This document shows, piece after piece, positions 16,306-25,704 of a stretch of DNA of 64,000 nt. The DNA comes from Candidatus Binatia bacterium (GTDB lineage Bacteria > Desulfobacterota > Binatia > Bin18): positions 1,888,001 to 1,952,000 of the forward strand of contig OY761159.2 of the NCBI GenBank assembly GCA_963664395.2. The letters are read 5' to 3'. Below the pieces are notes generated by a model. It did no database searches and was not told where the DNA came from. It was given only the letters and a program-made list of their open reading frames with translations. A program made the translations under genes and the position numbers. Each line of letters starts with the position of its first letter. Within the stretch, counting starts at the first letter, position 1.

Positions 16306-16573
16306 ATCGCCATCAAATACAAGGGCCTGCGGACATTTTTCGAGCGAGGGGACGCACGCCACCACGGACTTGGTTCCACGGATTCGGCGCATCCTGTCGG
16401 ACCTGGACGCGGCAGTAGGGCCGAGGGACCTGGATATGCCCGGCTATCGGCTCCACCGGCTGACAGGCGACCGGCGCGGCTACTGGAGCGTGCGCGTCTC
16501 TGGGAACTGGCGCATTGTCTTCCGCTTTGTGAATGGCGAGGTCGCAGACGTAGACCTGCTCGATTACCACTAG
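16306..16573 (+). pseudogene. higB: HigB (RelE/ParE-family) toxin, frameshifted
   Basis: C-terminal PGYRLHRLTGDRRGYWSVRVSGNWRIVFRF...DYH; the conserved N-terminal KYKGLRTFFERGD lies in another frame and is preceded by TGA. Confidence 0.75.
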
Positions 16574-16602
16574 GGTTTACCTATCTGAAGAGGAGACGAC
16601 TC

Positions 16603-16878
16603 ATGGCGACGATGTACGACCCCGCGCACCCTGGCGAAAGCCTGCGGGACGCAATGGCGGCAGCAGGCTGGACCGTGACCGAGACGGCCGCCAAGCTTGG
16701 CTGCACACGGCAAACGTTCTCGCGGCTGCTGAACGGTCGCACCGGCGTCTCGCCGGCGATGGCGTTGGCTTTGGCGTTGGAACGCATCGGGTGGAGCAAT
16801 GCCGCATTCTGGGTCCGACGCCAGGCGCAGTACGACTTGGCCCAAGAGCGGTTACGTCAGGAGAGGGCGGCCGCGTGA
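16603..16878 (+). CDS. higA: HigA family antitoxin
   Basis: PAHPGE, XRE HTH, SPAMAL, FW.RRQAQYDL. Confidence 0.9.
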   Translation: MATMYDPAHPGESLRDAMAAAGWTVTETAAKLGCTRQTFSRLLNGRTGVSPAMALALALERIGWSNAAFWVRRQAQYDLAQERLRQERAAA

Positions 16879-16879
16879 C

Positions 16880-16972
16880 GGGGAGGGCGAGTCGAGGACG
16901 CTACATATAGTGGCAGGACTTCCTCGCCGACTTTCCGGATGGCGCGTTTGACTTCTTCAATCGTCAGCAGCC
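16880..16972. repeat. Left copy of ~95-bp direct repeat (displaced LLM gene 3' end)
   Basis: Matches 25705-25801 and includes a 44-bp identical core (16912-16955 = 25741-25784). Confidence 0.92.
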
Positions 16973-17002
16973 ATTCGCCCCTACTCCGCCCGCCGTGTCC
17001 GC

Positions 17003-20000
17003 TCACTCCACGTCCGTAATGACAAAATTCTGACTATTCTGCTGCCATTCCAACAGCACGCTCTGCCCCAAGCGGGGAAAGTCGTCCGCCATACACTCCC
17101 CCTCGGCTCCCCGTAGAAACTCCTGCCCCAAGGTCGTCACCTGTACTGTGGCCCGGCCTAACTCGATGTTGTCCACGAAGGCCACGACTGCATGCTCCCC
17201 CTCCCCCAACAGATTCCAGTTGAACAAGAGGCCAAACCCGTTGTCCGTATCCCCACAGACTCCGGCTGTATCTAACCGCTCCGTCCCATACGCCGCCACT
17301 TGCCGCCCGGCGGTCCCAATCGCAAGCTCGACCGTGTCTGCGTCACACACCCAACCCGAGAGCACCCGGACCCCACTCTGAAAGGAGTTATGACCCGGAT
17401 TCTCCAGAAACCCGGTCAGCCCACTCGTCCGGCCCGTGGTGGCCCCAGCCGGGGGATTCCCGCCCGCAATGACGAAGTTCTGGCTATTCTGCTGCCACTC
17501 CAAGGTCACGCGCGCGCCCAGGGTCGGGAAGTCCTCGGCCTCGCACGTCCCCGTCACATCCCGCAGAAACTCCTGTCCCAGTGTCGTCACCGCCACCGTG
17601 GCCCGGCCGAGTTCCACGCCATCCACGAAGGCCACCACCGTGTGCTCTCCATTGCTCAGCAGATTCCAGTTGAACAATAAACCAAAGCCATTGTCCGTGT
17701 CCCCACATACCCCTGCGGTGTCTAACCGCTCCGTCCCATACGCCGCCTCCTGCGGCACCCCATTCAACTCGATCTCCACCACCGCCGCCTCACACACCCA
17801 GCCTGAGAGAATGCCGACGCCGCTCTGGAAGGAGTCCGGCCCTGGGTTCTCCAGATAGCCCCGCACGAAGGTGACGACTATGTCGTACACCCCGGTCGCC
17901 CCGCCCTGCCCCTGCACGGCCACCACGACTGGCCCGGCCTGCACGCGGGCGCCAAGCCGGGTGGCCTGCCCACTGCCGTCCAGAGTGCCGGTCTCCAAGA
18001 CTGTCCCGTCCTGCCAGATCGTGCCTCGGGTGGTGATCCCCCTAGTGGTGTCCACAAAGAGGAGGCCCCGACCGGGGACGGTGACGGTAAAATAATCCAC
18101 GTCGGCGGCCGGACAGATGGCCCCAGCAGTCACGGCAGACAGCACAATGTCAGTGGCTTGCGCGGTGGTGTTGCCGTGTACGTCGTCCGCACAGGCGGGA
18201 GCACCACCACCGCCACCACCGCCACCGCCGCCACCACCGCCGCCGCCGCGCCGAGGCGGGGGGAGCTGGTCCGAGACCAACGCCTCCGAGACCTGCATCA
18301 CTTCCTTGTTTATCGTCCCGTCGCTGTCGGTATAGGTCGCCGTGGCCCGCAGGTAGTAGTCCCGGTCGGCGTCCACCGGGGTGTAAGTCGCCGTCGTGAT
18401 CAGGGCGCAGTCGATCTGTAGCGTACTGGGATCGGCCGGGGGAAAGTCACGGTACAGGGACCGCTCCCAGCACCAGGCGGTGACCACACCCACCCCGTCC
18501 GGGTCGGCCAGCCTCGCGGTGAACTGCGCCCCGATCTGAGGCGGCGACGAGGGCAGATTGACCCGGCCCAAGGCATCCTCCACCGTGACGGTGACTTCCA
18601 GCCCGGGGCCGGTGAGCGTCTCGCCGGGCAGGCTCGTGGTGTCGGCGGCTTCGATCGTCACGGTGTAGACGTTGTCCTCCCCAACATCTCGCGGCCGCTC
18701 AAAGTCGGGCGGCGGATCGAAGCCCAGTACCCCGTTCCGGTCGATGGAGAAATGGGCACCATCCGGCCCAGTCACCGACCACGCCAGCCGGACAGTGGCC
18801 GGGTTCGTCGCCGTGTACGTGGCCACCGGCTGCGTCCCGCGCTCGGTGTAACTGACTGCGTCGAGCCCACTCACCTCGGGCGGGTCGTCATCAGTGATCG
18901 TCAACGTCGTGGCCTCCAGTCGGCCCACTCCCTGGGCGTTGTCCACGCGCCCCGTCACGGTGACTCGCTTGTCCTGGGCGTCCACGTCGTTATCCACCGC
19001 CGTGAGCGTGCTAGTCGAGCTGGTCGTGTCCCCCGGCGCAATCGTCAGCGGGTTGGGGCTCAGCCGGAAGTCGTCCAGCGTCGCCGTTATGGTGACCTCG
19101 GTCGTCGCGCTCGACGTTCCATTCAGCAGGCGCGCGGTCAACGTGGTCGTGCCGCCGTCTTCACGAATCCGCGGGGGCACCACCGCCACCTCCAGCCGTA
19201 CCGTCGGTGGGTTGTCATTGTCTTCGATAGTCACCGTCACGGGCGCCGGCGTCACCGTCAGCCCCGCCGCTGTGGTGCTGCCGCGCACCGTCACGGTCTT
19301 GTCCGGCTCATCTATCGTGTCGTTCTGCGGCGTCAGGGCGAAGGACGCCGTCCCGCTCTTCTGGTTCGCTGGAATCGTCAGGGTGAAGGTCGTCGGGTCT
19401 GCGGTGAAGTCCGTGCCCTGCGTGGCCGTGCCGGGCGAGACCTCTACACTCACGGCGGTTTCATCCGTACGCGGCACTCCATTGAGCGTGCCCGTCACCG
19501 TCACGGTGGTCCGTCCCGCCTCCTCCGCAACCATCGCCCGGTTCACCGTCAGCACCACCTCGTCGGACTCCGCCTCATCATCTTCGACCGTTACGGCCAC
19601 GTCGGCCGCGGTCTCCCCGGCGTAGTCCCCGCCACTCACCGTATGCGTGATCGTCGCCGACTCGTCCGCGACATCGGTCGGATCGGTCTCGTCCTGCGCC
19701 GTCACGGTCACCCGTTGCGACCGATCCCAGTTCCCCGTCCCGAAGCTCAGGCTGGGCGGCGACACGCGCACGTCCGTATCTGATGTCGCCGTCCTCATGA
19801 CCGTCACCGTCACCGGCGCTATCGGCTCGGAGGTCAACACCACCTCATAGGTCTTGGACGCACCTTCGTTCACACTCAGCTCCGTCGGGGTGACCGTCAC
19901 CCCACGGGTGTCGTCGTCCGTGATCGTCAGCGTCACCGGGTCTGGGGCCTTCACCAGGGCATTGGGCGGCACTGTCCCCGTCACGGTCACCTCTTTGGTC

Positions 20001-23000
20001 TCCGCGTCCACCTTGTTGTCCTTGGCCGTCAGCGTCAGCGTCACCGTCCCCTCGCTGCTCGTCTGATTCGCCGGAATGGTCAGCGTATTGCCGCTCGGCG
20101 TGAAGTCTCCTCGCACTGCCGGACTCACCGCTGTCGCCGAGATCGTCACCCGCGTCAGCACGCTCACGGCGGGGTCCAGCGTCGCCGTCACCGTGCTGAC
20201 GCCGTTCTTCTCGGTAATCGAAGGCGGTGACAGTGCCAGGGAGACCTTCGGCGCCGCCTGTACCCGGGCGGTTGTGGTCGCCGACTCCTCCTTCCCCATA
20301 ATACTGTGCCCGTCGGTGTAGGAGGCGGTGGCTCGTAGATACTGATTCACGTCGTCCGCATCCGGCGTATAGGTCGCCGTCGTCGCTCCGCTGGACGTCG
20401 CCCCAGAGATGGGAGTCCCGGTGCCGGTGCGAGTGGCGGCCCGCGCCCACTGCCAGGTGATCCCGCTCAGGCGCTCATCGAGGTCGCGCAGCATGGCCGT
20501 CAGTGCCTGCTTTTCCTGCGGCGTGCTCGACGACAGCTCGACCATGCCTGCTTCGTTCTCGTTGGTGACATCGATGGTCACGGTGATGGTATCGTCCGTG
20601 TCCGTGTCGGTTTCACCGTCGTCGTTCTTGCCGTCCCGGACCGCCACGGTGACCGTGTAGCGACGCTTGGTCTCGTAGTTCAGCGCCGCCTGGGTCCACA
20701 ACTGCCCGGTGGTCGTGTCGAGGGTGAAGGACGCGGCGTCGGGCTCGCTCAGACTGTAGGTCAGCGCCGTGTCGTCGGGGTCGGTGGCCGAAACGGGGAG
20801 GCCGATAGCGACGTTCGTGGCCGTGTTCTCGGCCACGCTGCGGGTCGTGGTGCTGTCGTCAAAGGCCGGCGGCTGGTTCGCGACCGCGGTCACCGTCAGT
20901 CGGGCACTGCGCGTGCCTTCCCCACCATCCACCAGGGCCATCACTTGATAGGTGTAGGTGCGCCCCGATGTGACCGCGGTATCGGTGTAGGTCGTCGTGC
21001 TGAGGCCCTCGGCAAGGGGAGTGGCCGTGCCGTCCCGCGTGACGGTATAGGTCACGGTCGGGGCCGGACTCCAATGCGTCGCCATCACCTCCGTCCAGCT
21101 CAGGGCGACCTGACCCGTCGTTAACGTGTCGGCGGTCAGGGTCGGACTCTCCCTGAGCTGGTGGCCGAACTCCGGCCAGGTCGCCGCCCCGCTGCCATCA
21201 AAGTCTACCTTCAGTGCCGGGTACTGGCTGCTCGTGCCGAAGTCCCACTGAAACGCGTTCCAGTTCGCATAAATGCCGCTGTCGTCCGTGGGGGTCTGTA
21301 ATTCCGTGGTGGTCTTGGCCTCGCCATTGGACCCGCTCGTGTGGCCTGACGTGTTCGTGTCCCAATAGCTGGCGGTGATGTCGCCGGCTTGAACGCGCCC
21401 GACCAGCCCGCCGACATTGCTGCTGCCCGACACGCGTCCGGTGGCGTAGCTGGCGGTGATGTCGCCGGCTTGAACGCGCCCGACCAGCCCGCCGACATTG
21501 CTGCTGCCCGACACGCGTCCGGTGGCGTAGCTGGCGGTGATGTCGCCGGCTTGAACGCGCCCGACCAGCCCGCCGACATTGCTGCTGCCCGACACGCGTC
21601 CGGTGGCGTAGCTGGTGTGAATCGTGCCGAAGTTCACGCCGACTAGCCCGCCAACCCCATTGCTGCGTCCCCCCTTCCCCTCTACCCGTCCGGTCGCATA
21701 GCTCCCGAGGATGGTGCCTTCGTTCTGCCCCACCAGCCCTCCGACCACGCTTCTCCCTGCCACCTCAACATTGATCAGCCCAATATGGCGGATGACACTG
21801 CCAATGCGCAGGAGGGCGATGAGTCCCACTGCATCTTCATTGGCCCGATTGATAAACAGATGACTGATAGTGTACCCGTTCCCCTCGAACGTCGTGTCGA
21901 ACCGGTTGAATCTAGTGCCGATGGGCACCCAGCCGGCACCGCTATTCCAGTAGTCGGAGTCCTCCGCATCGACCTGTCCGTCCCCGTTGGTGTCGTCGGT
22001 CGTATCGACCTGGCCATCTCCGTTGGTGTCGAAGAAGTCCAGGTCCGCCATCAGCTCATATCCCGTGCACCCGCCGCTCGTGGCACCGCAGACCACCCGC
22101 GTCACGTTGGGAAACGCCGCGGCATAGGCCGTCGCCCCGGCGGGCGTCGGGCTGCCATCGCCGTCCAGGTCGTGCCGCATGGCATCGAGCTGCGCCAGGG
22201 TCGTGATTTCAATCAGCCCGTCATCGTCCGTATCGTACACCGGCCCTGGGGTATTGTTCGTCACTGCCTGCCCGGAGAGGGTGGCGGCTGCGTTACCGAC
22301 CACATCCTGCAGCGGCGGGGTCCCCATCGGTGGGGAGTAGGCCAGCGTCACGCTGTCACTGGGGGCGACCTCGGAGACCGGTGACAGCGTCACCAGCGCC
22401 CCGATGTTACCGTGGACGGCATGGGAGACCAACCTCAGCGTCACCACCGCCCCGGACACCTGGACGGCGGCGATCAACCGGGGCGCACTGCCGGCCGTCA
22501 CCGTAAACGCGTTCGCCCACGGAATCGAGGTCGCGTCCAGCGTCTTGTCATACGTCAGCGTCACGGTGTTACCGTCCACCTCCGCGGTCGCCAAGTCCGG
22601 CGTGTCGCCATCCACGGTGTGATCGCTGTTGGCTGCTACGGCAGCATGGGTAAAGTCCGTGGCGGATCGGTTATCGGCGTCCCGGATCGTCCCGCCGTTC
22701 GGATTCAGGCTGTCCGCGACGACACTGACCCCGTCGGTGTCACTCTCGTCAGCCACCACGGTGTAGGCACATGTCAGCACCTCGCTCGCGACGGTTTGAC
22801 AAAGCGCCTGCCGCGTGTTCGTGCCGACCATCAGCCCGATGCTGGGCGTGCCAGTCACCATTATGGGCTTGGTGAAAACCACCGCTACCGTGATCTCCTC
22901 ACCTGCCGCATAGGCCACCCCTGGGTCCGAGATGATCGCCACCGTGCTGATGCTCGGTACGCTCGCACGGTGTAAGTCTGCGTCGTTGTCGGTCAGCAGC

Positions 23001-24208
23001 GTCACCGTGGCCGTGGCCTGACTGCCCACCGTCACCCCTGCGGGCAGCGGTGCGCCAAAACCCAGGATCACCGTCTCTTCGGCCTCTTGTCGGGTGTCCT
23101 GCACGGCCCTGAAGGTGAAGGTTCGTGAGGTCTGGTTCGCCCCAAATGTTATGCTCGCCGGGAGGGTATAGTCGCCGGGCCAGGCGCCCTCCATACTTGT
23201 CGCCGTCAGCGGAATGGGCAGGTCGAGAGTGCGGCCCGGTGCAGCATCCAGTTGCACCGTGACCGTCACCGACCCGCCTTCGTTCACCATGTATGGCCCT
23301 ACATCGAAGGACACCTGCACGGCCCGGCCCTGCCGAAAGTCTGCCACGGTGTCCCGCGTCATGTTGAGCACCCGCGCCGCATTGGCCGGCCCGTTCGGCG
23401 CGGTCGAGTCCATGTTGCTACTGGTGCGCGCCACCCCCATGGGATCGCCGTCATCATCGGGAGGGCAGTCGCCAGGATAGCAGTTGTCCGGATTGGAGAA
23501 GTAAAGCACCCTCATACAATTATCGAGGCTGCGAGCAATACACTGATTAGAGGACGCCATGATCGTGCGCCAGCGGGTCGAGGGCAGTGCGCCCGAGTCA
23601 AACGCCCGCTGGTTTACATAGCCGTAGGCGTCGGCAGACACGCGGAGGCCGCAGTCATCGGGGTCACATGCCACATATCGATCATGCTGAAGGCCCATAA
23701 TGTGGCCCAGTTCATGGGCGAACGTGTCAGCGCGAGCACTCGTGCCGGAAACGCCAAAGGCGCGTGAGGCAAAGCCCAGTGATTCGCGGGTCATAGTGTA
23801 TGCTGATCCACCGCCTCCCTGACGGATCAGGATAACGGCATCCGCCCGGACGCGGTCACGGATGGTGTGGACCTCGTCCATGTAGCCATCCGACTTAGCC
23901 TGGAGACGACGGATATCGGTATACCTATTCAGCGTAGCGTTCCCCGCCGCCGCCTGGGTGTATCCCTCCACCTCCTCCACGGCCACCAGATTAATGGTCT
24001 GGTTCACTCCGCTGTCTGCGTAGGCCATATTGGTTATAACGACAAACTCATCGATCTTTGTCTTGATCTGCGCGGTCCCACCCCAGGTGTCTTTGGCCTG
24101 AGGCGTGTAAAAGACGGCGACATCAATCACCGACTGCGCGTGTGCAGTTCCAGCCAGGAGGGGCAGAAGCAGCAGCGCCAGCGGCAGGCGTCTGATGTAC
24201 GGTAGCAT
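17003..24208 (-). CDS. Giant secreted multidomain protein: reprolysin-like M12 Zn-metalloprotease, Calx-beta/Ig-like, SwmB-like, GLUG, FN3, cadherin-like, poly-Gly linker, PPC-like, duplicated C-terminal domain
   Basis: Signal peptide ending AHA-Q, HELGHIMGLQHD with RTIMAS Met-turn, VGGLVG repeats, LNYETK and DFERP cadherin-like motifs, DxDxDG loops. Confidence 0.88.
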   Translation of the reverse strand: MLPYIRRLPLALLLLPLLAGTAHAQSVIDVAVFYTPQAKDTWGGTAQIKTKIDEFVVITNMAYADSGVNQTINLVAVEEVEGYTQAAAGNATLNRYTDIRRLQAKSDGYMDEVHTIRDRVRADAVILIRQGGGGSAYTMTRESLGFASRAFGVSGTSARADTFAHELGHIMGLQHDRYVACDPDDCGLRVSADAYGYVNQRAFDSGALPSTRWRTIMASSNQCIARSLDNCMRVLYFSNPDNCYPGDCPPDDDGDPMGVARTSSNMDSTAPNGPANAARVLNMTRDTVADFRQGRAVQVSFDVGPYMVNEGGSVTVTVQLDAAPGRTLDLPIPLTATSMEGAWPGDYTLPASITFGANQTSRTFTFRAVQDTRQEAEETVILGFGAPLPAGVTVGSQATATVTLLTDNDADLHRASVPSISTVAIISDPGVAYAAGEEITVAVVFTKPIMVTGTPSIGLMVGTNTRQALCQTVASEVLTCAYTVVADESDTDGVSVVADSLNPNGGTIRDADNRSATDFTHAAVAANSDHTVDGDTPDLATAEVDGNTVTLTYDKTLDATSIPWANAFTVTAGSAPRLIAAVQVSGAVVTLRLVSHAVHGNIGALVTLSPVSEVAPSDSVTLAYSPPMGTPPLQDVVGNAAATLSGQAVTNNTPGPVYDTDDDGLIEITTLAQLDAMRHDLDGDGSPTPAGATAYAAAFPNVTRVVCGATSGGCTGYELMADLDFFDTNGDGQVDTTDDTNGDGQVDAEDSDYWNSGAGWVPIGTRFNRFDTTFEGNGYTISHLFINRANEDAVGLIALLRIGSVIRHIGLINVEVAGRSVVGGLVGQNEGTILGSYATGRVEGKGGRSNGVGGLVGVNFGTIHTSYATGRVSGSSNVGGLVGRVQAGDITASYATGRVSGSSNVGGLVGRVQAGDITASYATGRVSGSSNVGGLVGRVQAGDITASYWDTNTSGHTSGSNGEAKTTTELQTPTDDSGIYANWNAFQWDFGTSSQYPALKVDFDGSGAATWPEFGHQLRESPTLTADTLTTGQVALSWTEVMATHWSPAPTVTYTVTRDGTATPLAEGLSTTTYTDTAVTSGRTYTYQVMALVDGGEGTRSARLTVTAVANQPPAFDDSTTTRSVAENTATNVAIGLPVSATDPDDTALTYSLSEPDAASFTLDTTTGQLWTQAALNYETKRRYTVTVAVRDGKNDDGETDTDTDDTITVTIDVTNENEAGMVELSSSTPQEKQALTAMLRDLDERLSGITWQWARAATRTGTGTPISGATSSGATTATYTPDADDVNQYLRATASYTDGHSIMGKEESATTTARVQAAPKVSLALSPPSITEKNGVSTVTATLDPAVSVLTRVTISATAVSPAVRGDFTPSGNTLTIPANQTSSEGTVTLTLTAKDNKVDAETKEVTVTGTVPPNALVKAPDPVTLTITDDDTRGVTVTPTELSVNEGASKTYEVVLTSEPIAPVTVTVMRTATSDTDVRVSPPSLSFGTGNWDRSQRVTVTAQDETDPTDVADESATITHTVSGGDYAGETAADVAVTVEDDEAESDEVVLTVNRAMVAEEAGRTTVTVTGTLNGVPRTDETAVSVEVSPGTATQGTDFTADPTTFTLTIPANQKSGTASFALTPQNDTIDEPDKTVTVRGSTTAAGLTVTPAPVTVTIEDNDNPPTVRLEVAVVPPRIREDGGTTTLTARLLNGTSSATTEVTITATLDDFRLSPNPLTIAPGDTTSSTSTLTAVDNDVDAQDKRVTVTGRVDNAQGVGRLEATTLTITDDDPPEVSGLDAVSYTERGTQPVATYTATNPATVRLAWSVTGPDGAHFSIDRNGVLGFDPPPDFERPRDVGEDNVYTVTIEAADTTSLPGETLTGPGLEVTVTVEDALGRVNLPSSPPQIGAQFTARLADPDGVGVVTAWCWERSLYRDFPPADPSTLQIDCALITTATYTPVDADRDYYLRATATYTDSDGTINKEVMQVSEALVSDQLPPPRRGGGGGGGGGGGGGGGAPACADDVHGNTTAQATDIVLSAVTAGAICPAADVDYFTVTVPGRGLLFVDTTRGITTRGTIWQDGTVLETGTLDGSGQATRLGARVQAGPVVVAVQGQGGATGVYDIVVTFVRGYLENPGPDSFQSGVGILSGWVCEAAVVEIELNGVPQEAAYGTERLDTAGVCGDTDNGFGLLFNWNLLSNGEHTVVAFVDGVELGRATVAVTTLGQEFLRDVTGTCEAEDFPTLGARVTLEWQQNSQNFVIAGGNPPAGATTGRTSGLTGFLENPGHNSFQSGVRVLSGWVCDADTVELAIGTAGRQVAAYGTERLDTAGVCGDTDNGFGLLFNWNLLGEGEHAVVAFVDNIELGRATVQVTTLGQEFLRGAEGECMADDFPRLGQSVLLEWQQNSQNFVITDVE
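21366..21615. repeat. Perfect intragenic 81-bp tandem repeat x3 (GLUG units)
   Basis: Units start at 21366, 21447 and 21528 and encode SYATGRVSGSSNVGGLVGRVQAGDITA. Confidence 0.95.
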
Positions 24209-24783
24209 CAATGCTGGTGGTCGGGCTCAGAATGGGTCTCCACCACTTCACAGTTAAGCGGTGGCTCCTCCACCTCACTGATGGCGTACAACCCGTCGCC
24301 CACCGAGCGGATCTCGTAGATTTCTCCCGGCAGCCGCACCGTGCCCGCCACGGCCTCCCCATTGACCACCAGCGTCATCGTCCCGAGCGGCTCTTCAACC
24401 AGATGGCCCGCTACGGAATAGCCGCCCGAAAACGTGGGGGCCGTCCGCTCCACCAGGCCCGTGACGACCACATCGTCGAACAGATTGAAGGTCAGGGTCG
24501 TGCCCGGTGCGGGGGCCGAACTGGATTTGTCCGTGCGCGTGGACGGGCCTTTGGTGTGCGCAGTCTGGCCGGGAGGTCCGGCTACGGCGGCCTGGACTTG
24601 CGCCAAGTCCATGGTCACCATCCGGCTGCGCACCGTCAGATCGTCGGACGCTATTGCCGGCGGGGGCGTTTCATCGACCGGTGTAAAGAGGTCGGCGGCC
24701 TGGGCCTCGACCGCCGGCGCGGCCAACGCTATCAGCACGGCGACAGTGGCCGTTACCATGCACCGCAGGCTTGTCACAAACAT
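24208..24783 (-). CDS. Secreted protein resembling the N-terminal prodomain of bacterial M12 metalloproteases
   Basis: GAGGAGG RBS, signal peptide (VEA-Q), TFNLFDDVVVTGLVERTAPTFSGGYS...GTVRLPGEIYEIR; TGATG overlap with the protease gene. Confidence 0.75.
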   Translation of the reverse strand: MFVTSLRCMVTATVAVLIALAAPAVEAQAADLFTPVDETPPPAIASDDLTVRSRMVTMDLAQVQAAVAGPPGQTAHTKGPSTRTDKSSSAPAPGTTLTFNLFDDVVVTGLVERTAPTFSGGYSVAGHLVEEPLGTMTLVVNGEAVAGTVRLPGEIYEIRSVGDGLYAISEVEEPPLNCEVVETHSEPDHQH

Positions 24784-24962
24784 GTTCCGCTCCTCCTCTT
24801 CCTTCAGCCTCTCCTCCCTCTGCTGTGCTGTCGCTGGCGCGGCAGGTTGTCGGCGTGATTTTGGGTCGCCAACGCCAGGGGAAATCCTTTCATACCCAAT
24901 TCCGCTGCCCCTGTCGCCTCCAAAATTGTAGTAAAGTTGCACCGCAAAACGCCGCCCGGCGC

Positions 24963-25656
24963 CAGCCGCACCAAGTCGGCCTGCCGGGAGATACCCTGCT
25001 TGCGGTAGATCTGATTCAGGGACCAATAGACGGAGCCTGCCCCGCGCCCCGGCGCCGTGGCCATCTCACGCACGGTCTTGCCTTCTGCCAACCAGACCGC
25101 TATTCGGCTCTCCGCCGGCGTGAGGCCCAGAGTCGCGGCCACTAGGCCGGAATCGATACGGGACACCTGCCCCGGCTCGGCAATCAGCACCAGCGCAGCG
25201 ACGCGTCGAGCCCCAAAGTCCACCGGCCGGACACCCACGGGTTTGACCTGCACCACGCACCGCGACAGCATGGACGCACGGCGGAGCGCTGGAGGTCGGC
25301 AGCGCGTCGGCCGGCACGCGGGCGTACAGCAACCCGCCCCGGTCCGATAACCCGTCACCGTGCCGCAGGATGGCACGGGCACGGTCATTCGCCTCTACGA
25401 TCCGCCCATGCCGGTCCAGGTGGATAACCCCAATCCGGTGGGTGTCGAGCAGGCCGGTCACGGACGCACCTAGCGCCTCGGCTTTGGCCAGCGTCTGCTG
25501 GACCCGGGCAAATTGGCGGAGATGGGGCAGCAGGGCATTGCCCTGTATGCCGCAGGCCTCATCAATCAGGGCCGAGGGGACCGGCCACTGGGCAGCGTTG
25601 AGTGTGGCATCGTGTAACGATGCCAGGATACGCTCGAACGCGTCTTGGTCACTCAT
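24963..25656 (-). pseudogene. Degraded PAS/LuxR-HTH transcriptional regulator
   Basis: LDRHGRIVEAN PAS-like segment and GLTPAESRIAVWLAEGKT...GISRQADLVRL HTH are in different frames; abrupt GNALL|PHL join suggests an internal deletion. Confidence 0.8.
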
Positions 25657-25704
25657 GACGTTGCGTCCTTCAACAACATCTACCCGGCCCGTTGATTAAT
25701 GGTT

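Follow-up and report, generated by a model that had tools for sequence, protein, structure and literature searches.

A probable metzincin prodomain encoded in trans upstream of a giant secreted protease in a Candidatus Binatia bacterium

Metzincin latency has mostly been studied in cis. A gene pair in the genome of a sponge-associated Candidatus Binatia bacterium (assembly GCA_963664395.2, contig OY761159.2) raises the question of how a giant secreted metzincin is kept latent if its catalytic domain follows directly on the signal peptide, and which part is played by the small secreted protein encoded immediately upstream. The pair lies on the minus strand of a stretch of 64,000 nucleotides (positions 1,888,001 to 1,952,000 of the contig; hereafter the window, with coordinates counted from its first letter). 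A reading of the letters alone (the original prediction) had proposed a split zymogen, that is, a two-component system in which a separately secreted chaperone or inhibitor controls a surface protease. Based on homologs, predicted folds and a predicted complex, the small protein is probably the adamalysin/fragilysin-type prodomain of the downstream metzincin, encoded by a split-off gene that is translationally coupled and provides a Sec signal of its own, and acting in trans.

The gene pair and its junction

The small gene (24211..24783, minus strand; ATG at 24783, stop codon TGA at 24210-24208) encodes a protein of 191 amino acids (aa) that is classified, from its translation, its homologs and an AlphaFold2 model, as a probable stand-alone adamalysin-type prodomain with a CpaB-like fold. 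The large gene (17006..24208, minus strand, stop codon at 17003-17005) encodes a protein of 2401 aa, a secreted reprolysin-like metzincin whose repeats are of the GLUG, cadherin-like, and further beta-rich types. The TGA of the small gene and the ATG of the large gene (24208-24206) have one base in common, which confirms the TGATG coupling described in the original prediction. The letters across the junction read CAG CAT TGA TGC TAC, and a TTG at 24211-24209 is an alternative start of the large gene (junction TTGATG, 24206..24211, minus strand). The same overlap of stop and start is retained in the loci L001-L003, L012, L013, L015, and L017. Contigs from runs of three other studies (X2 record 13, X4 record 21, and X11 records 2 and 4; some runs are labelled sponge metagenome) span positions 24206-24210 with no differing letter and no insertion or deletion. 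None of these independent contigs shows a continuous frame, in agreement with the earlier argument against a simple nonsense or frameshift break, and the junction is not a sequencing error or an artefact.

Both proteins begin with a segment that was identified as a signal peptide by eye (positive n-region, hydrophobic core, and A-x-A site; the slash marks the predicted cleavage site). The predicted Sec signal peptide of the small protein comprises residues 1-29 (24697..24783, minus strand; MFVTSLRCMVTATVAVLIALAAPAVEAQA/ADLF, site AQA/AD) and contains a hydrophobic segment at approximately residues 8-25 followed by P...AQA/A, which looks cleavable by eye. A-x-A/Q-type sites stand ahead of the conserved LF motif in the aligned homologs of the small protein. 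The second signal peptide, residues 1-24 of the large protein (24137..24208, minus strand; MLPYIRRLPLALLLLPLLAGTAHA/QSVIDVAVFYTP), ends in AHA/QS, and segments ending in [AV]-[HY]-A/Q also precede the catalytic domain in the loci L002, L003, L012, L013, L017, L023, and L025.

The catalytic metzincin domain (residues 25-294, 23327..24136, minus strand; Pfam and NCBIfam) starts directly after the second signal peptide, and the large protein has, as originally noted, no prodomain in cis. It is a reprolysin/adamalysin-like metzincin (MEROPS M12B-like) according to its Pfam matches, with Reprolysin_5 at residues 25-222 (46.3 bits, cut-off 27), Reprolysin_3 (34.5 bits, cut-off 22.4), and Reprolysin_4 (32.9 bits, cut-off 22). 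The zinc-binding consensus HELGHIMGLQHD (residues 165-176, 23681..23716, minus strand) agrees with HExxHxxGxxHD, and its H, E, G, and H show no variation in alignment A3. The almost invariant M193 of this alignment, located within TIMA, is taken to be the Met-turn. Positions 1-234 of the Mep72 profile (NF052434, NCBIfam) align to residues 27-294 of the large protein (E 6.7e-17), with a score of 61.3 bits that falls short of membership in the family (whole-protein cut-off 645).

Relatives in cis and in trans

Homologs of the small protein are numerous: 463 stand-alone proteins were found (105-335 aa, E up to 1e-3), and its domain has 1042 representatives in a 50%-identity library, so that several hundred hypothetical small proteins would gain an annotation as protease partners. 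A total of 74 out of 93 longer homologs carry Reprolysin_3, Reprolysin_4, or Reprolysin_5 and have the small domain N-terminal in cis, which answers the question whether the domain is fused to M12 domains elsewhere. Two proteins (P0125, 1668 aa, and P0130, 1709 aa) hold the entire architecture of the window pair in a single chain, in which ...PPLNCEVEE is connected to ETVIDVAVFYTP by a linker of approximately 35-50 residues that contains no signal peptide.

An architecture census based on hidden Markov models (HMMs) was conducted on 348 fetched proteins, counting only those with good domain coverage, and identified 194 stand-alone proteins, 83 N-terminal fusions, 25 C-terminal fusions, in which the domain follows the catalytic domain, and 31 other arrangements. 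The spacing between prodomain and HExxH in the N-terminal fusions falls into three classes of approximately 230-265 (direct), 420-430, and 460-585 residues. The second class may contain a second copy of the domain, which is a guess from matches that fall into several stretches, and the third may contain an inserted leucine-rich repeat (LRR) region, a reading that is based on the precomputed LRR Pfam matches of those proteins. The C-terminal forms (P0176, P0182, P0204, P0150, and 21 others) show the order signal peptide-LRR-catalytic domain-prodomain-like domain, a circular permutation of the zymogen; four that were read retain a GLF-type motif, and three of them lack the Cys.

A scan of genome contigs with a single protein returned four distant loci (Phycisphaerae, Nitrospina, and Acidobacteriota), all four of which are fused. 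In a metagenome scan with ten sequences, 31 distant loci were found; the domain is followed by HExxH in a single open reading frame (ORF) in 21 of them, a window-type pair was found in none of the 31, and 10 were left unclassed. One metagenome locus (L031, 1562-5248) contains a stand-alone copy of 224 aa immediately upstream of a protease that has its own fused copy. In a fused relative from a Nitrospina metagenome-assembled genome (L009), HAIGHNLGARHD replaces HExxH and the catalytic Glu is absent; from its sequence, this relative may be an inactive protease homolog.

The recurrence of the split pair was also raised in the original prediction, and two further pairs were identified in the source genome itself, together with pairs in related genomes. 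The source genome (5.04 Mb, 14 contigs) contains four copies of the small domain, one of which is fused as part of a protein of 789 aa. The other three stand alone, and in each of these the stop codon overlaps with the first codon of a large gene for a metzincin that begins with a second signal-peptide-like segment ([AV]HA/Q); the small proteins of the three paralogous pairs share 73-84% identity. Within the same taxonomic order, matches to the small protein occur in 11 out of 56 genomes (G000 counted), with fragmentary matches (L018-L021 and L024) left unclassed. Window-type pairs are present in G034 and G037 (L013, L023) and, with an N-terminally truncated small gene, in G003 (L017). Four further loci show other arrangements. 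In L022 (G034) and L014 (G030) a short gap separates the small gene from a downstream protease gene whose product has the order signal peptide-LRR-catalytic domain, which parallels the fused relatives with approximately 460-585 residues between prodomain and HExxH and LRR Pfam matches. The small gene of L015 (G001) is intact, and its partner is internally deleted to 132 aa, a remnant consisting of the signal peptide, approximately 65 first catalytic residues, and approximately 35 last residues. No metzincin lies within 1.5 kb downstream of the small gene in L016 (G019), where a different ORF is found.

For the phylogenetic analysis of the domain, the 31 other arrangements were dropped and the remaining 302 sequences were thinned by 3-mer overlap to 158, from which a midpoint-rooted FastTree phylogeny was calculated. 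The tree shows 17 changes of architecture, compared with approximately 60 in label shuffles (minimum 52). The small protein of the window belongs to a stand-alone clade with a Shimodaira-Hasegawa-like (SH-like) support of 0.97, the successive sister groups of this clade are N-terminal fusions, and the fused P0125 is nested inside it. We read this pattern as a stable fission that would derive from a fused ancestor and be confined to certain lineages, a reading limited by the rooting, by the short alignment, and by possible gene fragments among the stand-alone proteins. The same data bear on the explanation that a recent frameshift, nonsense break, or sequencing error disrupted a formerly fused gene and left the small ORF as a pseudogene piece. 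Fused relatives do exist, and the truncated small gene of L017 and the internally deleted partner of L015 show that copies decay in related genomes, but three paralogous pairs and other genomes retain both the overlap and the second signal peptide, the junction is unchanged in three other studies, and the window protein sits within a well-supported stand-alone clade. Such a recent break is extremely improbable.

Prodomain fold, predicted complex, and known systems

The AlphaFold2 model of the mature small protein, based on an alignment of 48 sequences, shows a beta-rich fold (predicted local distance difference test, pLDDT, 83.8; predicted template modelling score, pTM, 0.74). A structural search of this model against all representative PDB chains returned the chaperone chain of 6O38 as the best match (6o38_G, Z 13.3, root-mean-square deviation 3.9, 111 aligned), and further matches to ADAM17 prodomains (8snl_A, Z 9.3; 8snm_A, Z 9.0; 9o54_A, Z 8.2), to residues 36-185 of profragilysin-3 (7pnd_A, Z 6.0), and to B. 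fragilis metalloproteinase II (4on1_B, Z 5.9). Foldseek likewise placed six 6o38 chaperone chains (G, H, and K-N) on top (probability 1.0, TM 0.62-0.70 on target). The predicted fold is that of an adamalysin/fragilysin-type prodomain, and it ties the orphan chaperone CpaB structurally to the ADAM and fragilysin prodomains. The homology to M12-type prodomains on which a split zymogen depends is thus found in the fold, shared with the ADAM17 and fragilysin prodomains and CpaB, and in the cis relatives; the cis arrangement itself is absent from the window and present in those relatives.

The fused paralog of the source genome was modelled with AlphaFold2 as well (residues 31-520, pLDDT 80.5, pTM 0.82). 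Taken whole, the model superposes on pro-ADAM17 (9o54_A; 287 residues aligned at Z 19.2, model 17-457) and profragilysin (approximately 270 aligned at Z 18.1-18.5, model 1-451), compared with approximately 175 aligned residues and a Z of approximately 16 for catalytic-only chains. The top catalytic match is CpaA (6o38_A, Z 23.4), and snake-venom and ADAM catalytic domains match this model, the only one put to the test for an adamalysin fold, with Z 15-16. Because of the whole-body superposition on pro-ADAM17 and profragilysin, the models identify the fused relatives as adamalysin/fragilysin-type zymogens and the window pair as such a zymogen cut in two.

The complex was predicted from the catalytic domain (residues 25-294), a zinc ion, and residues 30-191 of the small protein with custom alignments. 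It received a score of 0.90 (runs 0.91, 0.90, and 0.90) compared with 0.01 for the best of three controls, with a contact agreement between runs of at least 88% and a partner pLDDT of at least 80. The mark applied to this score is reached by 116 out of 157 solved complexes and 2 out of 215 mismatched pairs, counts that hold only roughly here because of the custom alignments and the zinc ion. On the side of the small protein, the predicted interface consists of the beta sheet and residues 173-183 (EPPLNCEVVET; 24235..24267, minus strand), a switch-like tail delimited by the interface list and the motif census that contains the sole Cys of the mature protein (C178 in PPLNCEVV, 24252-24250). On the side of the enzyme (domain numbering), it includes residues 141-142, 145, and 150-151, which are the zinc ligands of HExxH...H, and the segments 108-114, 133-138, and 194-196, the last next to M193. 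The modelling of the pair that had been proposed as a check passes its controls, with both the Cys-bearing tail and the zinc-site histidines in the predicted interface. This predicted interface fits a tail that lies in the active-site cleft, and it also fits a cysteine switch. The remaining residues of the small protein (184-191, 24211..24234, minus strand) form the His-rich tail HSEPDHQH; both the single mature Cys and this tail are as originally described.

In the mechanism that we propose, both the small protein and the metzincin would be exported, and the beta-rich domain of the small protein would dock onto the catalytic domain while the tail EPPLNCEVVET lies in the cleft of the active site, where Cys178 would probably be the fourth ligand of the zinc. 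The small protein would hold the protease latent, and probably assist its folding, up to its own displacement or degradation. The small protein would work like the prodomain of a zymogen but in trans, in the manner in which the Acinetobacter chaperone CpaB acts on CpaA.

Several points weigh against this reading. The complex prediction was read as a list of interface residues, in which no contact between Cys178 and zinc is seen, and its high score may stem partly from likeness to the solved structures 6O38, pro-ADAM17, and profragilysin. The tail is not confidently docked in the model of the fused paralog, where the residues after the Cys fall below pLDDT 50 (segment 152-197). At the sequence level the small protein matches no Pfam or NCBIfam model and no PDB chain, and PDB sequence and profile searches with it returned nothing significant; PF27177, precomputed on many of its close homologs, covers part of these proteins, and a literature search turned up no paper naming this family. 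Cleavage of the signal peptides is suggested by an eye-read sequence pattern in both proteins. The evidence for expression consists of a single contig of 186 nucleotides (24488-24673) from one metatranscriptome run, which does not prove transcription, and the lack of RNA cover elsewhere in the stretch counts neither for nor against it. Finally, the Cys is not universal. A tail-motif census with regular expressions, in which 53 of the 348 proteins were left unclassed and close relatives dominate the sample, identified the Cys motif in 147 of 178 stand-alone proteins (13 have PPLGEP-like tails and 18 neither motif), in 12 of 69 N-terminal fusions (47 PPLGEP-like, 10 neither), and in 10 of 21 C-terminal fusions (7 PPLGEP-like, 4 neither). 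The cysteine switch of the original prediction thus gains Cys178 within the predicted interface next to zinc-site residues, and loses generality through the PPLGEP tails of many relatives.

The Cys position is occupied by Glu or Asp in many relatives. Because PPLNC and PPLGE stand at the equivalent motif position, the sequences suggest that a thiol and a carboxylate can be exchanged there. An aspartate switch occurs in other metzincin zymogens, and the motifs PPLNCGV, SCGVN, and ACGVT of relatives presumably resemble the CGV of the cysteine switch in ADAM and matrix metalloproteinase (MMP) proteins. The Cys motif was counted in 146 of the 194 stand-alone proteins of the tail census; in this sample of mostly close relatives, the Cys is followed by exactly 13 residues in 124 of the 146, and 115 have a DHxH-like end.

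The closest known system is the CpaA-CpaB pair of Acinetobacter nosocomialis, whose complex is PDB 6O38. According to PMC7542363, the C-terminal tail of CpaB blocks the catalytic site of CpaA, four CpaA repeat domains wrap CpaB, and the complex is secreted if CpaB lacks its anchor. A second report (PMC4713064) places cpaB 22 bp downstream of cpaA, predicts a transmembrane helix at residues 7-26 of CpaB, and describes CpaB as required for CpaA secretion. The window pair shares with this system a separate small gene adjoining the metzincin gene, the fold of the small protein, and the predicted placement of the tail at the active site, and the NCBIfam CpaA model matches 4 of the 48 proteins scanned in A4. 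It differs in that the small gene is located upstream, overlaps the protease gene, and encodes a signal with a cleaved look, whereas cpaB is located downstream and encodes a predicted transmembrane anchor. Furthermore, the small protein shares only 9-13% sequence identity with CpaB, the window protease has no CpaA-type repeat domains beside its catalytic domain, and close fused (cis) relatives were found for the window family.

This comparison suggests an alternative in which the small protein is strictly a secretion chaperone of the CpaB type, anchored in the inner membrane, that keeps the protease bound and inactive in the periplasm and passes it on to a type II secretion system while itself staying behind. 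Its N-terminus may, from the sequence, be an uncleaved anchor: its hydrophobic stretch spans approximately residues 8-25, and the predicted helix of CpaB, which is also the best structural match and is needed for CpaA secretion (PMC4713064), spans residues 7-26. The source genome contains three secretins, a weak T2SSL match (20.9 bits, below cut-off) lies approximately 4 kb away from one of these, and type II export of the pair is possible. However, the window protein and the majority of its aligned homologs show a Pro at -7 and an A-x-A at -3/-1 relative to the conserved start of the mature chain, a pattern typical of cleaved signals. The fused proteases also start with the same N-terminus, and a permanent anchoring of a giant adhesin-protease in the inner membrane seems unlikely. 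We therefore consider a strict chaperone of this type unlikely, and prefer a prodomain that acts in trans.

The ADAM17 and Bacteroides fragilis fragilysin prodomains resemble the small protein in their fold, in their placement on the catalytic domain, and in a Cys or acidic residue after the beta domain. They differ from it in being part of the protease chain, whereas the window prodomain is made as a polypeptide of its own and carries a separate signal peptide. No sequence-level similarity to them was found.

A second known pair is BamI-Mep72 of Pseudomonas aeruginosa. According to PMC4334185, BamI is encoded upstream of mep72 and co-transcribed with it, binds Mep72, relieves its toxicity in Escherichia coli, and is described as partly disordered. 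A pure periplasmic immunity inhibitor of this kind, or of the kind that AprI/Inh represents for serralysins, would guard the producer from premature protease activity and have no role in folding. The detoxification by an upstream gene favors this explanation (PMC4334185), and so does the alignment of the window catalytic domain to the first 234 positions of the Mep72 model. In both pairs a small gene precedes a prodomain-less metzincin with a Sec signal, and the catalytic domains are related. In contrast to the partly disordered BamI, the small protein of the window is predicted to be a well-folded beta domain. The BamI model NF052435 matches neither the small protein (E up to 0.1) nor 48 of its relatives (E up to 10) nor any other part of the genome, and Pfam gave no match either. 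Moreover, cis prodomains are homologs of the small domain, and those of related zymogens commonly assist folding as well. A pure immunity function is thus quite improbable, less so only than a recently broken gene.

A separately encoded, prodomain-like chaperone or inhibitor of a metzincin is a concept that is already in print (CpaB-CpaA and BamI-Mep72). A text search of the literature for metzincin prodomains that act in trans from a gene of their own returned nothing relevant. The two-component inference of the original prediction therefore stands in its substance, a prodomain in trans that is supported by homologs, fold, and predicted complex, and not in its novelty. The window contributes a prodomain gene that is conserved, located upstream, and translationally coupled, and whose signal looks cleavable, together with a single family that contains cis and trans forms among close relatives and C-terminal forms among more distant members. 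Such a family is a natural system in which to study the role of covalent linkage in folding, latency, and activation, and the finding suggests that giant protease-adhesins of sponge-associated bacteria are regulated.

A broader interpretation, which we offer tentatively and consider less likely than not, is that the prodomain works in any connectivity within this one family (N-terminal, N-terminal with an LRR insert, C-terminal, or free and secreted) and with a switch residue that may be Cys or Glu/Asp. The window lineage would then represent chaperones of the CpaB type that arose by fission of an adamalysin-type zymogen, the old linker becoming the second signal peptide. If this is true, the free prodomains of the three sponge-symbiont pairs could cross-regulate each other's giant adhesin-proteases.

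Other features of the giant protein and its surroundings

No sigma-70-like promoter was found within 16500-25700. A frame upstream of the pair (24804-25388) resembled a LuxR-type helix-turn-helix protein by eye; Pfam gave no match, and the candidate was rejected.

Downstream of the catalytic domain, the large protein carries GLUG repeats including near-identical tandem units (residues ~800-960, 21329..21811, minus strand; Pfam Glug, E 4.1e-17, four stretches), among them three near-identical copies of ATGRVSGSSNVGGLVGRVQAGDITASY at residues ~880-960, and a cadherin domain (residues 1124-1214, 20567..20839, minus strand; Pfam Cadherin, E 1.3e-10). The protease of the second paralogous pair in the source genome (L005, 6475-13613; C1:3252474-3259612) is divided into overlapping ORFs of 853 and 1538 aa, and the break inside its GLUG repeats reflects a frameshift or else a misassembly of the repeat. 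A run of 16 glycines (residues ~1987-2002, ~18200-18250, minus strand) lies between the repeats and the C-terminal part of the large protein. This part consists of two copies of an unnamed domain of approximately 140 aa (GYLENPG...QNFVITDVE; residues ~2117-2401, 17006..17860, minus strand), identified from the sequence and without a Pfam match. Two copies of the same domain (GYLENPG...SGWVC...QNFVITDVE) also close L005, L006, L007, P0125, P0130, and P0137, and the domain may be an anchoring or sorting module.

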